DNA from: a virus | Taxonomy: Duplodnaviria > Heunggongvirae > Uroviricota > Caudoviricetes | Virus record (IMG/VR): IMGVR_UViG_2690316149_000015 | Location: 1 to 39,222 of that record | DNA: 39,222 nt | Strand: one strand, 5' to 3' | Shown here: positions 23,051-29,774 of the stretch, piece by piece | Layout: each line of letters starts with the position of its first letter | Position numbering within the stretch: the stretch's first letter is position 1 | Translations under genes and position numbers: made by a program | The notes under the pieces: generated by a model | The model's database searches: none | Told to the model about the DNA's origin: nothing | What the model saw: the letters and a program-made list of their open reading frames with translations, nothing else

Positions 23051-23494
23051 ATGAATAAAGTTAAAAGTGTTTACAGCCCTTCCGAAAATGCAATCTACAA
23101 CGCAGCGCTATACGAAAGTTATATCAAGGAGGGGACATGGCCGCAGGATGGTATTGAAATCAGCGATGAGGATGCTGTCAGATTTAATGGGGGAAATAAG
23201 CCAACAGGAAAAATGCTGGGAATGGTTTCAGGGGCCCTTGCATGGGTTGATGAGCCGCCGCTTTCACCAGAACAGAAAATATCAGATGCAGAAAACATGA
23301 AAGCCACATTTCGTGCAAAAGCTGACAGTGAAATATCCTGGCGTCAGGATGCTGTTGATGCGGGCATTGCAACTGATGAAGAAACTTCAACTCTCACCCA
23401 ATGGAAGAAATACCGTGTGCTGCTGATGCGTGTTGATACTTCAACAGCCCCCGATATTGAATGGCCTACGCCTCCGGCAGTTCAGGCCAGATGA
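23051..23494 (+). CDS. tail fibre assembly protein (Tfa), inside the invertible segment
   Basis: 147 aa; C-terminal region (WKKYRVLLMRVDTSTAPDIEWPTPP) typical of Tfa/U-family chaperones; converges on a second tfa on the other strand. Confidence 0.85.
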   Translation: MNKVKSVYSPSENAIYNAALYESYIKEGTWPQDGIEISDEDAVRFNGGNKPTGKMLGMVSGALAWVDEPPLSPEQKISDAENMKATFRAKADSEISWRQDAVDAGIATDEETSTLTQWKKYRVLLMRVDTSTAPDIEWPTPPAVQAR

Positions 23495-24068
23495 CATCCG
23501 GCGCGGTGCTGGTATCTGTTGCCGTCACCGCGTCGATATAATCCAGCACAACGTTAAGGCGAGTTGTTTCTGCCTGCATCAACTTCCGTCCGGCCTGCAA
23601 TTTCAGTTGAATCAGACTGATGGAAGCCATAGCAGCATCAATAAGCGACTGGCGCTGTGCTTCTGCTGCATCTACTGCGGCGCTATGCTGTGCCTCGGTA
23701 TCCGTCACCCATTTCTCACCATCCCATTCATCGTATGGCGTTAACGGGGCGATAGTGGTCGTATTTTCAGGATAATCACCCGGACCTGTGATTTCTTTCA
23801 ATTCTCCTGTTTCGGTGCTATAAACGATTTCACCGCGATGGTCTGGCACATATTCCCATGAGTTTAAATCCATCGAACGGCAGATAGCATAACCCGCCTT
23901 ATGTGTGCCAGGGGCATCTAAACAGGAATATGCAGGGATACCGACACCAATGGCAAGATATTCATTTGAAGTGGAAATATATTCCCGAGTTTCACCATCA
24001 TAGTTATAGACGGTAATATTCCCCGCCTTCGTGGCAATAAGCTCGCTATTTAATACGGCGTTATCCAT
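23466..24068 (-). CDS. alternative tail fibre assembly protein (Tfa'), inside the invertible segment
   Basis: 200 aa on the minus strand with the same C-terminal Tfa signature (TSTAPDVIWPELPE); 3' ends of the two tfa genes overlap. Confidence 0.85.
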   Translation of the reverse strand: MDNAVLNSELIATKAGNITVYNYDGETREYISTSNEYLAIGVGIPAYSCLDAPGTHKAGYAICRSMDLNSWEYVPDHRGEIVYSTETGELKEITGPGDYPENTTTIAPLTPYDEWDGEKWVTDTEAQHSAAVDAAEAQRQSLIDAAMASISLIQLKLQAGRKLMQAETTRLNVVLDYIDAVTATDTSTAPDVIWPELPEA

Positions 24069-24523
24069 TATGCAGCCCTCACGATAAAGTTAAATGCAAT
24101 ATTTCGTGGACGGGTTTCACTCCCGCCATATGATGATGTAAATCCCGAATATGCCCGGTGTCCCGCATCCGTCGTATTAGCCCAGGAAGGACCGCTAGAA
24201 GTATAGATGACCCCATTGTAATCATGGCCGTGTGCCTCAATGCTCCCGTCCTGAGCAGACAGGAGAGTCCGTCCTGAATCAATTCCTCTTCCATCATCCC
24301 ACCCACGAATGAATTCGCCGCGTAAATCTGGCAATTTATTTGTCGGATAAACTTTTGCCAGTTCCGGATACTCTTCGGCAGAAAAAGCTGCACCGTTGCA
24401 TTTCAGCCAACCTGTTGGCGGTGTGACTGAAGGCCACGGAACAGGCACACCTACGGGTAATGCAGAGCCTTCTCCCAAACCAACGTTTATGAAAATGCAG
24501 AAATAACGAGCAAATGGCATCAT
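24068..24523 (-). CDS. silent alternative tail fibre C-terminal cassette (S'v-like), expressed only after inversion
   Basis: Contains the PVGVPVPWP..GW..C..G..F tail-fibre tip motif; its 5' end encodes NVGLGE across the right crossover site, in frame with LGLGE at the left site. The ORF-track start is probably not a real start. Confidence 0.8.
   Translation of the reverse strand: MMPFARYFCIFINVGLGEGSALPVGVPVPWPSVTPPTGWLKCNGAAFSAEEYPELAKVYPTNKLPDLRGEFIRGWDDGRGIDSGRTLLSAQDGSIEAHGHDYNGVIYTSSGPSWANTTDAGHRAYSGFTSSYGGSETRPRNIAFNFIVRAA
24470..24495. promoter_or_regulatory. Hin/Gin/Pin-family inversion crossover site (right)
   Basis: TTCTCCCAAACC-AA-CGTTTATGAAAA; reverse complement TTTTCATAAACG-TT-GGTTTGGGAGAA shares the central TT and 14 bp with the left site; lies just upstream of pin. 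Confidence 0.65.
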
Positions 24524-24549
24524 TCCTGCTTTTGTCAGGGAGATCTACC

Positions 24550-25104
24550 ATGCTTATTGGCTATGTACGTGTGTCAACAAATGACCAGAACACAGATCTA
24601 CAACGTAATGCGCTGAACTGTGCAGGATGCGAGCTGATTTTTGAAGACAAGATAAGCGGTACAAAGTCCGAAAGGCCGGGACTGAAAAAACTGCTCAGGA
24701 CATTATCGGCAGGTGACACTCTGGTTGTCTGGAAACTGGACCGACTGGGGCGCAGTATGCGGCATCTTGTCGTGCTGGTGGAGGAGTTGCGCGAACGAGG
24801 CATCAACTTTCGTAGTCTGACGGATTCAATTGATACCAGTACCCCAATGGGGCGCTTTTTCTTTCATGTGATGGGTGCCCTGGCTGAAATGGAACGAGAA
24901 CTGATTGTTGAACGAACAAAAGCTGGACTGGAAGCTGCTCGCGCACAGGGACGAATTGGTGGACGTCGTCCCAAACTTACACCAGAACAATGGGCGCAGG
25001 CCGGGCGATTAATTGCATCAGGCGTTCCTCGCCAGAAGGTGGCGATCATCTATGATGTTGGTATATCGACACTGTATAAGAAGTTTCCGGTCGGAGATAA
25101 ATGA
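24550..25104 (+). CDS. pin: serine DNA invertase, Pin/Hin/Gin family
   Basis: ORF 24514..25104, start taken at MLIGYVRVSTNDQ; catalytic serine motif and C-terminal HTH; recognised as essentially the e14 PinE sequence. Confidence 0.95.
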   Translation: MLIGYVRVSTNDQNTDLQRNALNCAGCELIFEDKISGTKSERPGLKKLLRTLSAGDTLVVWKLDRLGRSMRHLVVLVEELRERGINFRSLTDSIDTSTPMGRFFFHVMGALAEMERELIVERTKAGLEAARAQGRIGGRRPKLTPEQWAQAGRLIASGVPRQKVAIIYDVGISTLYKKFPVGDK

Positions 25105-25105
25105 A

Positions 25106-25143
25106 ACCGTAGCACGTCGTATGCAAGAAGATCGTGCTGCGGT
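25106..25143. terminator. putative bidirectional hairpin between convergent pin and GIY-YIG genes
   Basis: ACCGTAGCACG ... CGTGCTGCGGT, an 11-bp stem with one mismatch and a 16-nt loop, in the 60-bp gap between the two stop codons. Confidence 0.35.
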
Positions 25144-27534: not shown

Positions 27535-27560
27535 TCCTGCTTTTGTCAGGGAGATCTACC

Positions 27561-28115
27561 ATGCTTATTGGCTATGTACGTGTGTCAACAAATGACCAGA
27601 ACACAGATCTACAACGTAATGCGCTGAACTGTGCAGGATGCGAGCTGATTTTTGAAGACAAGATAAGCGGTACAAAGTCCGAAAGGCCGGGACTGAAAAA
27701 ACTGCTCAGGACATTATCGGCAGGTGACACTCTGGTTGTCTGGAAACTGGACCGACTGGGGCGCAGTATGCGGCATCTTGTCGTGCTGGTGGAGGAGTTG
27801 CGCGAACGAGGCATCAACTTTCGTAGTCTGACGGATTCAATTGATACCAGTACCCCAATGGGGCGCTTTTTCTTTCATGTGATGGGTGCCCTGGCTGAAA
27901 TGGAACGAGAACTGATTGTTGAACGAACAAAAGCTGGACTGGAAGCTGCTCGCGCACAGGGACGAATTGGTGGACGTCGTCCCAAACTTACACCAGAACA
28001 ATGGGCGCAGGCCGGGCGATTAATTGCATCAGGCGTTCCTCGCCAGAAGGTGGCGATCATCTATGATGTTGGTATATCGACACTGTATAAGAAGTTTCCG
28101 GTCGGAGATAAATGA
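27561..28115 (+). CDS. pin: serine DNA invertase Pin (copy 2)
   Basis: Identical translation to 24550..25104. Confidence 0.9.
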   Translation: MLIGYVRVSTNDQNTDLQRNALNCAGCELIFEDKISGTKSERPGLKKLLRTLSAGDTLVVWKLDRLGRSMRHLVVLVEELRERGINFRSLTDSIDTSTPMGRFFFHVMGALAEMERELIVERTKAGLEAARAQGRIGGRRPKLTPEQWAQAGRLIASGVPRQKVAIIYDVGISTLYKKFPVGDK

Positions 28116-28175
28116 AACCGTAGCACGTCGTATGCAAGAAGATCGTGCTGCGGTTTATGCTTATCACTTAAAGAC

Positions 28176-28949
28176 TCAAAAATTAGGTGAGTAACGGACC
28201 GGGGACATAGCTCCTTTTTTTCTTAATTCATCTGGTATTTTTTTTCCAAGATAAAGATTTGCTATTTCAGGTGGGGCTTCTCGACCTTCAAAACCATAGC
28301 GAGAACTTTGTGTTGCCTCAAAGTCCGGATCCTCGTCCCAGTATTTCATCGTAGGGAAATTTTCACGTGTTGATTTGAGCCATTTATCAGCAATGAAAAC
28401 CCCTCGAACGATCCCCCTTACAGTAGCAAGAATGACTTCTGCTTGGCTGGCGCGAGAGACATTAATGCGCCAGCTAAATCGAACCGCATCATAAAGCTCT
28501 GAATCCTTTGCACTTCTGTTAACGGAAATCATTAATGCTTTATGATGAAATGTTATGGTTTCGGGTTGATATGTTGCTATCAACTCTTTGACATGCGCGG
28601 CGCCGAATTCATTGCTGCCAGCACCATTCATGATATTCGTTAACCCAGGGTAGGCATCAATAAGTGCTGCTTCAACTTCGTACGCCGTCTTTTCATCAGT
28701 CATTCCGTGTCGATGGATGACATGGATAACCTCAAGTCCTGCTAACCTTATTTCTCTAATTTGCTTTAGCTTGTTGCTCAGTAACTCGTCATCATCAGTC
28801 GCTGCCACTTCACCGCGCATATGGGCAAATACGCGGTTACCTTTGCCTTTCCCTACATAGAAGGTGCTTCCGTCCCTCGGATCAATCAATCGGTATACAT
28901 ACCAGCCAAGGTGTTCAATTACTCCAGAAGGAAACTCAGTAATATCCAT
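28176..28949 (-). CDS. GIY-YIG nuclease-domain protein (copy 2)
   Basis: Identical translation to 25165..25938. Confidence 0.7.
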
Positions 28950-29128
28950 TTTGCAATATCTATGAATTATTTGTGAGACGTATATTAATGAACATTGCAA
29001 GGGCTCACAACTAGTAGTGTTGAGAAAGCCATCGGGAAAATGAGGCTAACCCTTTGAATTTACATAGCGCAAAAAGATACCTTTCCTCATAATGTGAGCT
29101 AATTTTATGTTTCGTTTGATGATCGGGT

Positions 29129-29190
29129 CGGTCTCGAAAACCGGAGTAGGGGCAACTCTACCGGGGGTTCAAATCCCCCTCTCTCCGCCA
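29129..29190 (+). other. partial tRNA-Ser 3' fragment (copy 2)
   Basis: Duplicate of 26118..26179 within the tandem repeat. Confidence 0.6.
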
Positions 29191-29774
29191 CTTTATCAAT
29201 GACTTATCTCCCGACTTCCCGCCTTGCTTTTCCTAAACAGAACAATCGTAGAATATTCTTGAAGGGTTAGATCGTCACTGTTTTCTGTTCGATACTGTGA
29301 CATTCAGCACTTGATTCGCTATGGATCTGACAGGAAGGTTTCGAGCGAAAATCTGCAGTTATTCAGTCGTTTTCTTATCGGTCACCATTATTCTTTTAGA
29401 CATTGATCCTACAAAGCTGCCGCAAAGTTGGTGGTGGGAACTGAAGTTGCGTAGAGAAGGGGTCAATACCCGGAGGCACACATGGGCTGGCAAAAGTGTA
29501 GCGGTATTAGGCGCAGCTATTTAGCCTAGTTATGTTTTATGAAAACTTGATGTCATATAAGTGTCTTACTTATTGGCTGTAAATAAGTTTTTTCTAAGGA
29601 ATTGTTTCTTGAGTATCATTTGTAACTGTAACGGAATTTATAATCCTTTGCTTTATTGTTACGGTATTTTTTATCACACCCTATTTTTTATGTGGTTTTT
29701 TATACTGAAGTTTGGCAAAGTGAACTTTATATGCATATACTTCATCCTAGTTTCAGTTAAATTGGGTGGATGAT

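Follow-up and report, generated by a model that had tools for sequence, protein, structure and literature searches.

In one draft E. coli assembly, an e14/SfV-like prophage that has a Mu-type tail and sits at thrW contains, at its right arm, two head-to-tail copies of a 3,011-bp unit. The two copies meet at a joint made of the arms of a 10-bp inverted repeat. There is about an even chance that this arrangement is a very young duplication, confined to one strain, that arose by an illegitimate join whose two breakpoints were set by an inverted repeat already present. What is seen is either such an illegitimate event of very recent date or an over-call by the assembler, and not a new genetic system.

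The duplicated unit and the prophage around it

Within the window (the whole stretch of 39,222 nucleotides that was analysed), positions 23268-26278 and 26279-29289 (both + strand) match at 3011 of 3011 positions (0 mismatches). The run of identity at period 3011 spans 3012 bases: the C at 29290, just after copy 2, is the sole base common to both boundaries, and direct homology at the join amounts to 1 bp. Identity stops 1 base past the unit, and the outer boundaries carry no direct repeats in the range of tens of bp or longer. Self-BLAST of the window detected no inverted copy of the unit, both copies being direct, and the only other self-similarity within the window is an unrelated 97.1% repeat (2070-3225 vs 5172-6327). 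The window forms part of a public draft contig (NCBI GCA_001284085.1, contig CXZS01000007.1; loci L018, L027 and L028) in which the duplication is likewise present; the way the window was cut out therefore did not create it.

Copy 1 comprises tfa from codon ~73, tfaE, a silent fibre cassette, the crossover site pixR1, pin, a GIY-YIG gene and a fragment of serU followed by 100 bp of its flank. Upstream, the expressed tail-fibre gene (22366-23046, + strand, 226 aa, Gp53-like_C) joins a constant part to variable part A at pixL. It is followed by an intact tfa gene (23051-23494, + strand, 147 aa, Caudo_TAP) that contains the left boundary of the duplication, which does not coincide with a mosaic boundary of tfa. 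Then come tfaE (23466-24068, - strand, 200 aa), the silent fibre C-terminal cassette (24068-24523, - strand, Collar domain), pin (24550-25104, + strand) and a LEM-3-like GIY-YIG gene (25165-25938, - strand, 257 aa). The second copies are located at 26477-27079 (tfaE, - strand), 27079-27531 (silent cassette, - strand), 27561-28115 (pin, + strand) and 28176-28949 (GIY-YIG gene, - strand). The C-terminal part of tfa in copy 2 forms an orphan ORF of 65 aa (26308-26505, + strand), and an in-frame stop just upstream of the junction means that this part yields no fusion protein. The sequence-only reading had claimed an exact tandem duplication of tfa', a silent fibre cassette, pin, a GIY-YIG gene and a tRNA-Ser fragment, hence two pin and two nuclease genes; Pfam domains, gene calls and RefSeq names bear this out, the content being the 3' part of tfa, tfaE, a silent Collar-type cassette, pin, a LEM-3-like GIY-YIG gene and the tRNA-Ser fragment.

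The tRNA-Ser fragment (26109-26179 in copy 1 and 29120-29190 in copy 2, both + strand) corresponds to nt 20-90 of the native serU and is accompanied by ~230 bp of the serU chromosomal downstream flank, which extends to ~29420 after copy 2. It is host serU DNA captured inside the element. The homology to the native serU flank continues through the right duplication boundary, which thus lies within a conserved flank and not at an element end. The prophage attR is a 50-bp 3' fragment of the thrW tRNA-Thr (31008-31057, + strand) located outside the duplication. The annotation logic behind the two att cores proposed earlier has to be corrected accordingly, the tRNA-Ser piece being captured host DNA and not an att site. 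An att-site duplication or tandem lysogeny was also rejected, as the boundary is not at att and the serU fragment stops 100 bp before it.

The unit overlaps a Pin invertase switch. A pattern scan of the window detected three pix sites against 0.01 expected. pixL (22643-22668, - strand; CTCTCGAAAACC TT GGTTTGGGAGAA on the + strand) lies inside the fibre gene, pixR1 (24470-24495, + strand) reads TTCTCCCAAACCAACGTTTATGAAAA, and pixR2 (27481-27506, + strand) is the duplicated pixR, a direct repeat of pixR1 that is inverted relative to pixL. The 26-bp sites pixL and pixR1, inverted and 95% complementary over 20 nt, flank the invertible segment. Both pin products (184 aa, Resolvase and HTH_7) carry PF00239 and PF02796, and the RefSeq name in relatives is pinE; by homology to pinE, a Fis-dependent enhancer is assumed to lie in the 5' part of the recombinase gene. 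The alternative fibre C-termini and tfa genes lie in opposite orientation, and both orientations of the P segment occur among public assemblies (L007-type and L008-type), which indicates that the family is active. The extra right crossover site and the two inversion sizes put forward earlier both hold: by analogy with Gin/Pin systems, the duplication would convert the P-segment switch into a three-site system in which Pin could in principle invert ~1.83 kb or ~4.84 kb. Such a system would yield no new fibre specificity, because the two silent cassettes are identical, and the 3-kb direct repeat should collapse readily via RecA-dependent recombination.

The junction and its inverted repeat

The novel junction (26270-26290, no strand assigned) reads TTTTCTGTTC-A-GAACAGAAAA, i.e. 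the right arm of copy 1, one A and the left arm of copy 2, within the junction-spanning sequence TTTTCTGTTCAGAACAGAAAA. It had been described as a 21-bp perfect palindrome; its two 10-nt arms flank an unpaired A, so that the 21-mer is not strictly self-complementary. Its folding as single-stranded DNA is modest (-7.4 kcal/mol, z = -2.35). GAACAGAAAA or its complement occurs exactly four times in the window (23270-23279, +; 26270-26279, -; 26281-26290, +; 29281-29290, -), always at a unit end, and the arms end at 10 bp without further extension. The left arm (23270-23279, + strand) is located inside tfa, over codons P-E-Q-K-I, and is ancestral, being present in single-copy relatives. The right arm, found as TTTTCTGTTC on the + strand at the end of copy 2 (29281-29290), belongs to the captured serU downstream flank, and the same 10-mer is present at the native serU locus. 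TUM1226 and MS 69-1, two relatives with a single copy of the unit, already carry both arms at the corresponding positions, with the same 3-kb spacing; the inverted repeat thus predates the duplication and was not created by it.

The position of the repeat was compared with chance by simulating 2,000,000 duplications, 500-8000 bp long and placed at random on the collapsed sequence, with ±2 nt slop per end. An inverted repeat of at least 10 bp was present at the unit ends in only 2.5e-5 of them, in agreement with the earlier claim that its presence at both boundaries is non-random. As unit ends fall so rarely on such a repeat, the latter probably guided the join.

Both the junction and the reciprocal deletion junction are absent from 5426 complete E. 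coli genomes and from GTDB representative genomes, and the junction is absent from JGI metagenome contigs and IMG/VR. Protein look-ups retrieved no Logan assembly for the strain. The duplication was seen in one draft E. coli assembly only, which makes the mis-assembly caveat of the sequence-only reading legitimate. The unit differs from those of the nearest complete genomes by 38 mismatches and 1 gap, and from that of the nearest draft by 1 mismatch in 2711 nt; the exact identity of the two copies, while the unit of the nearest relatives differs, points to a very recent event.

Possible origins of the junction

The junction was not made by Pin, the phage integrase or homologous recombination. 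A location at a Pin crossover site was rejected, as 26279/26280 is 1.8 kb from the nearest pix and has a 1-nt centre and no pix match. A homologous (RecA-type) duplication was rejected as well, given only 1 base of shared identity beyond the unit and no other direct repeat in the region.

The illegitimate duplication guided by the inverted repeat can be pictured in the following way. The end of the unit (...TTTTCTGTTC, in the captured serU flank) would have been joined to its start (A-GAACAGAAAA..., inside tfa) over 1 bp of direct homology, most likely by a RecA-independent template switch during replication or repair in which the two arms pair, or else by an end join. In one version, the arms would form the stem of a single-strand loop-out, bringing the 3' end at the right arm beside the template at the left arm, as the mirror image of a hairpin-guided deletion. 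In another version, a fold-back or hairpin-capped end at the right arm would make GAACAGAAAA de novo, and this new sequence would provide 10 nt of microhomology to the left arm on the sister chromatid (SD-MMEJ/MMBIR-like). The loop-out is disfavoured by its requirement for ~3 kb of single-stranded DNA, and the fold-back by its requirement for an extra A that is not templated by the right site. Bacterial tandem duplications with 0-1 bp of junction homology are documented and have been ascribed to template switching (bioRxiv 10.64898/2026.05.22.727201). Polymerase slippage guided by hairpins is likewise established in vitro (PMC4134008, which gives an assay for it).

It is possible, although on balance unlikely, that the second copy is an assembly over-call, i.e. 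that the assembler or gap-closer walked a loop once and wrote two copies while the dominant chromosome is single-copy. The junction could then be physically present in only a fraction of the culture, as a duplication or amplification within a sub-population or as an excised circle of 3,011 bp, or it could stem from a chimera in the library, for instance a ~3-kb mate-pair circularisation junction that lacks the linker. The zero divergence between the copies, the restriction of the junction to one draft assembly among all collections searched and the nature of the source, a 268,665-bp draft WGS contig beginning inside the prophage, are all in line with an over-call. Furthermore, the 3.0-kb unit is near a size common for mate-pair inserts, short reads do not allow the copies of a perfect 3-kb tandem repeat to be counted, and short-read assemblies of close relatives are interrupted in this region (loci L022, L024 and L030), at the P segment or the serU-like repeat. 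The same contig crosses a multi-copy IS3 whose left flank is unusual. This suggests aggressive scaffolding, and scaffolding or gap closing was probably used. However, chance chimeras or errors of gap closing would not be expected to hit the outer edges of the repeat (P ~2.5e-5). Known repeat-driven in vitro chimeras switch strands and keep one arm, giving inverted and not direct junctions. In addition, a 1-bp direct overlap is under the merge thresholds of common scaffolders, and the window contains no Ns. The specific artefact suggested earlier, mis-assembly of an inversion-prone region, does not account for the data: the junction lies at no pix site and, by derivation, Pin flips combined with annealing at the repeat never give a join with both arms. 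As the junction is underivable from any single-copy or Pin-flipped state, junction-spanning DNA would have to have been present for a k-mer assembler to write it, a point in favour of the repeat-guided duplication.

It is very improbable that the unit represents a cassette akin to a transposon, with 10-bp terminal inverted repeats as its ends, and that the join is a circle-junction or tandem-dimer intermediate produced by an end-specific enzyme, comparable to the abutted ends of IS3- or IS30-family circles. The geometry formally fits, with one inward-pointing half-site per end abutted with a 1-bp spacer, and genes for a serine recombinase and a nuclease lie within the unit. However, the unit encodes no transposase (its domains are Caudo_TAP, Collar, Resolvase/HTH_7 and LEM-3 GIY-YIG only), its left end lies in-frame inside the intact tfa ORF and its right end inside the conserved serU flank. 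Moreover, its arms stop at 10 bp and have no further occurrences in the window, no second junction or reciprocal empty site was found in any collection searched, and ~17 such 10-bp repeat pairs would be expected by chance in a 6-kb region (hand arithmetic). This reading is already largely refuted. Hardly any credence is given to the proposal that the block of pin, GIY-YIG gene and silent fibre cassette (GAACAGAAAA...TTTTCTGTTC) actively excises or forms circles, its junction being a frequent enzyme-made joint, due for example to the LEM-3-like structure-specific nuclease or another end-binding activity; if true, prophage right arms would harbour an inverted-repeat-bounded cassette, mobile or amplifiable, of a kind not recognised before.

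The least credible origin is recombination by Pin between quasi-pix sites at the two arms on sister chromosomes: pin adjoins, both P-segment orientations are found in public assemblies and quasi-site recombination is known for Cin, but the arms share with the pix half-site consensus no more than the outer TTTTC, the junction centre is odd (1 nt) whereas serine invertases exchange at a 2-bp stagger, the pattern scan detects only the three true pix sites and wild-type invertases (Gin/Hin) are not known to perform intermolecular or deletion-type reactions.

Significance and comparison with known systems

If real, the repeat-guided duplication would be a clean natural case in which a chance 10-bp inverted repeat, with arms 3 kb apart, dictates both breakpoints of a direct tandem duplication, and a data point for models of RecA-independent duplication (structure-guided template switching; fold-back then microhomology). 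It would also show that a single step can turn an invertase switch with two sites into one with three sites and two recombinase genes. A probable copy-number uncertainty is hereby flagged in the public draft genome GCA_001284085.1. No new biology is implied for Pin, the GIY-YIG protein or phage integration: the event is of an ordinary kind, with an unusual junction.

The duplicated locus is a standard member of the e14 P-segment, Mu G-segment and P1 C-segment switches (Pin, Gin, Cin), with which it shares a 184-aa Resolvase+HTH_7 recombinase annotated pinE, 26-bp inverted sites including TTCTCCCAAACCAACGTTTATGAAAA, and two oppositely oriented fibre C-termini, each with its own tfa, found in both orientations in public genomes. 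Unlike these switches, it has one left site, two identical right sites and two pin genes because of the duplication, whose junction bears no relation to the crossover sites. Unlike in true multi-segment systems (Min/p15B, shufflons), the extra segment brings no new fibre cassette.

Terminal inverted repeats, here 10-bp perfect arms (23270-23279 and 26270-26279), are shared with the circle junctions and (IS)2 tandem dimers of the IS3, IS30 and IS21 families, in which the spacer is 1-3 bp. In contrast to these, the unit has no transposase, target duplication or independent mobility, and its ends lie in an ORF and in a conserved chromosomal flank. TID and ODIRA inverted triplications also use short inverted repeats at amplicon boundaries for template switching (PMC10766183 and PMC11790251). 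Their products hold an inverted copy, with a closely spaced repeat at each junction, whereas both copies are direct here; membership was rejected on the self-BLAST result. Hairpin- or palindrome-guided slippage and quasi-palindrome switching likewise involve a short inverted repeat that sets polymerase exit and re-entry (PMC4134008). As a rule, such events are deletions or short templated changes, and their arms lie close together; here, 3 kb separates the arms and a duplication retaining both of them results.

No description of this junction signature for a direct duplication was found in the literature searched. RecA-independent tandem duplications (template switching/MMBIR) share with the present one direct head-to-tail copies, the lack of flanking direct repeats and a 1-bp microhomology. 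Unlike in those with 0-1 bp of homology, the breakpoints here adjoin the outer edges of a 10-bp inverted repeat that existed beforehand, which makes the new joint a 21-bp near-palindrome.

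The duplicated block and its joint

The block at 23268–26278 is repeated head-to-tail at 26279–29289, and comparison within the window gives identity over all 3011 bases. The exact tandem duplication proposed by the sequence-only reading is confirmed, with 0 differences between the copies. The run of identity at period 3011 is 3012 bases long, so that a single C is the sole direct homology between the two unit boundaries. Self-BLAST of the window places no further repeat in this region. A scan of the window for the decamer GAACAGAAAA and its complement gives exactly four occurrences, all at unit ends: GAACAGAAAA on the + strand at 23270–23279 and 26281–26290, and its complement (– strand) at 26270–26279 and 29281–29290. 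The joint reads TTTTCTGTTC-A-GAACAGAAAA (in fuller form ...Z-TTTTCTGTTC-A-GAACAGAAAA-Y), with TTTTCTGTTC on the left of the breakpoint and AGAACAGAAAA on its right. It had been described as a perfect palindrome; the two 10-nt arms are indeed present, but one base at the centre is unpaired, so that the term does not strictly apply. The single-strand fold of the joint is modest (-7.4 kcal/mol, z = -2.35).

Among two million random duplications simulated on the collapsed sequence, with ±2 nt of slop per end, an inverted repeat of at least 10 bp was found at the unit ends in 2.5e-5 of cases. The coincidence of breakpoints and repeat is therefore not due to chance, as the sequence-only reading had argued. 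The repeat itself is unremarkable, about 17 pairs of 10-bp repeats being expected by chance per 6-kb region (hand arithmetic); what stands out is the placement of the breakpoints on it. Beyond 10 bp the arms no longer match, and neither has a copy elsewhere in the window. Since single-copy relatives carry both 10-mers at the corresponding positions, the repeat predates the event, which joined the outer edges of the two arms. On the left, the arm is ordinary coding sequence of tfa and encodes P-E-Q-K-I, which is retained in the synonymous change from GAACAGAAAA to GAGCAAAAGA, and the right arm lies within the conserved serU flank. The left boundary was considered as a mosaic boundary of tfa or a repeat edge and rejected, as the usual breaks in homology are at ~23304 and ~23432, not at 23268; the right boundary is not an element end, as homology to the native serU flank continues across it.

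Elsewhere in the window, self-comparison gives one match only, an unrelated 97.1% direct repeat (2070–3225 versus 5172–6327) that spans an HNH endonuclease, the small terminase and the 5' end of the large terminase gene. Its first copy is cut off at 3225 by an IS3 (~3226–4483) that is multi-copy in Escherichia coli. Strain 602687 has this IS3 / hypothetical / HNH junction beside icd, within an e14-type remnant. The arrangement in the window is either a fusion of two prophage fragments mediated by IS3 or a draft mis-join across IS3.

The prophage right arm and the Pin switch

In E. coli TUM1226, the related element is a thrW-integrated prophage that combines an HK97-type head with a Mu-type contractile tail and e14-like ymf genes; a 3' fragment of tRNA-Thr, repeated from thrW, forms its attR. 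The corresponding attR of the window, a 50-bp match to this fragment, is located at 31008–31057, outside the duplication; an AraC-family regulator gene (29775–30518) and an IS (rve_3) remnant lie between it and the GIY-YIG arm. The duplicated block is the right arm of the prophage and carries the 3' two-thirds of tfa, tfaE, a silent Collar-type fibre cassette, pin (Resolvase + HTH_7), a LEM-3-like GIY-YIG gene (25165–25938 and 28176–28949) and a tRNA-Ser fragment. This fragment, correctly recognized from the sequence alone, corresponds to nucleotides 20–90 of native serU and is followed by ~230 bp of the chromosomal flank downstream of serU. In nearly all E. coli genomes, the serU locus is 97–99% identical to this fragment and flank (29120–29420; also 26109–26279). 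The right breakpoint falls within the flank, 100 bp from its start, and TTTTCTGTTC is present at the native serU locus as well. The observation made by the sequence-only reading stands, and its interpretation is supported in part. The fragment is not an att core but captured host DNA within a thrW prophage. The serU segment points to an earlier capture of the pin/GIY-YIG arm from an ancestor integrated at serU.

The left breakpoint, at 23268, is within the invertible segment and inside an intact tfa ORF. The tfa remnant of copy 2 is preceded by an in-frame stop and retains only a 65-aa orphan ORF, for which exact-protein look-up returned frameshifted or truncated tfa genes only and not the duplication. 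A P2-like prophage (ENA ERZ27318493 k141_283629) carries a homologous invertible fibre/tfa/invertase module (93% match between its positions 5774–6823 and 23070–24119 of the window); the gene call for its tfa is limited to this 65-aa C-terminal ORF, although DNA homology to the window tfa extends upstream of the ORF. From the junction over the tfa 3' region (26268–26456), a sub-threshold match to Rfam IS009 (55 bits versus a gathering score of 117) is probably explained by homology between tfa and the K-12 IS009 locus. Identical copies of the LEM-3-like GIY-YIG protein are extremely common (indexed in 20,404 blocks of the collection), and its gene adjoins pin at the right end of such prophages, integrated at ssrA/smpB, thrW and other sites; in e14, this slot is occupied by mcrA.

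The Pin system is canonical. Its crossover sites are pixL (22643–22668, – strand), inside the fibre gene, and pixR (24470–24495, + strand; TTCTCCCAAACCAACGTTTATGAAAA), and a pattern scan locates the duplicated pixR at 27481–27506 (+ strand), giving exactly three sites versus 0.01 expected. Public assemblies contain the segment in both orientations (comparison loci L007 versus L008). If the duplication is real, the prophage would carry two pin and two GIY-YIG genes and three pix sites, of which pixL would lie in the opposite orientation to the two pixR copies; judging from Gin/Pin biology, inversions of ~1.83 kb and ~4.84 kb and further secondary arrangements would be allowed. As the two silent cassettes are identical, no new fibre specificity would arise, and rapid loss by recombination between the 3-kb direct repeats, for the most part through RecA, would be expected.

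Genuine duplication or product of assembly

Exact-protein look-ups identified the same duplication in NCBI GCA_001284085.1, contig CXZS01000007.1 (268,665 bp), ~position 668 of which corresponds to window position 1. Since the public record shows the doubled gene order, with tfaE, the Collar cassette, pin and the GIY-YIG gene each present twice, the duplication belongs to the deposited draft and not to the extraction of the window. Look-ups of the GIY-YIG, tape-measure, fibre and Collar proteins returned the source contig and no second assembly with the duplication, and a literature search on the accession returned nothing. The junction was found 0 times in 5426 complete E. coli genomes, GTDB species representatives, JGI metagenome contigs and IMG/VR, and the reciprocal deletion joint 0 times in the same complete genomes and GTDB species representatives.

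A single copy, with 99% identity in this region, is present in the nearest complete relatives: E. coli TUM1226, OX030728 and a circular 64-kb record of strain MS 69-1 (5,489 bases matched of an 8,501-base query). The MS 69-1 record (NZ_CP146678.1, 'plasmid unnamed3') is a 'plasmid' that holds the single-copy prophage arm with the adjacent chromosomal island, and its proteins are the same as on the TUM1226 chromosome; it may represent a mis-binned contig or a segment that was excised. The nearest draft (GCA_030001295.1 JAAPDT010000051.1) differs from the unit by 1 mismatch in 2711 nt; its contig stops at the window equivalent of ~26049, just short of the serU-like repeat, and so shows the usual breaking point of short-read assemblies.

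Overall, the event belongs to a known class, that of illegitimate tandem duplications; its repeat-defined junction is unusual, and one draft assembly alone records it. A genuine chromosomal duplication, made by the route proposed below, has about an even chance of being the correct reading. That the junction was over-called by the assembler or made in vitro appears rather unlikely. The duplication is present in this draft only, and its copies show zero differences, versus 38 mismatches and 1 gap between the unit and the nearest complete genomes. Short reads do not give the copy number of a perfect 3-kb tandem repeat, and if a minority junction or a 3-kb circle had produced a loop in the assembly graph, the output would contain exactly two copies. 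Short-read assemblies of relatives break in the same region, and the contig also crosses an IS3 that is multi-copy and has an unusual left flank. In favour of a real joint, no single-copy or flipped state supplies the k-mers needed to compose it, so that DNA molecules bearing it must have been sequenced; moreover, random chimeras or gap-closing errors would not fall on the repeat (P ~2.5e-5). More exotic readings are very improbable.

Other origins were rejected. Homologous recombination is excluded because the direct homology is just 1 bp, and an integrase, att-site or tandem-lysogen origin because the att site lies at another position. A transposon is excluded as well: the unit encodes no transposase, it ends inside an ORF and inside a chromosomal flank, and the searches above gave no second junction and no reciprocal joint. 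Pin did not make the joint either, which has no pix site within 1.8 kb, is built around a 1-nt centre versus the 2-bp exchange core of Pin, and resembles a pix half-site solely in the outer TTTTC. By hand derivation, inversion of the P segment (the invertible tail-fibre segment) turns the two 10-mers into direct repeats, but microhomology would then give a 2,411-bp unit (X'-pixR-Z) and, after any pix inversion, a joint ...Z-TTTTCTGTTC-X'... unlike the observed one; likewise, no series of pix or repeat-mediated inversions creates, separates or converts to the observed joint. Simple annealing of the arms (snap-back, PCR/MDA chimera or cross-fork switch) would produce an inverted joint with a single arm kept. 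Comparison of the boundaries, by eye, with restriction sites, the gyrase consensus, Xer/integrase cores and known IS ends gave no convincing match.

A candidate mechanism and known systems

Most likely, the repeat guided a RecA-independent template switch or end join that gave rise to the duplication, and two versions of this route can be drawn. In a stem-guided switch, the arms would pair in single-stranded DNA (a long gap, a resected tail or an unwound nascent strand), the looping-out of 3,011 nt would set the 3' end at the right breakpoint beside the template just before the left one, and synthesis would restart there via the single-C microhomology. Alternatively, a break or stalled end at the right breakpoint would fold back or receive a hairpin cap; copying of TTTTCTGTTC would yield GAACAGAAAA, a 10-nt microhomology to the left breakpoint on the sister, and the central A would be untemplated or derived from the left breakpoint.

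For duplications, the stem-guided switch would be what hairpin-guided deletion is for losses of sequence; polymerase slippage promoted by hairpins is established in vitro (PMC4134008). The microhomology step of the fold-back version resembles that of SD-MMEJ or MMBIR. Bacterial tandem duplications with 0–1 bp of junction homology, attributed to template switching, are documented (bioRxiv 10.64898/2026.05.22.727201). No description of a direct duplication retaining both arms was found in the literature searched. The amplicons of TID and ODIRA (PMC10766183, PMC11790251) are also bounded by inverted repeats, but are themselves inverted.
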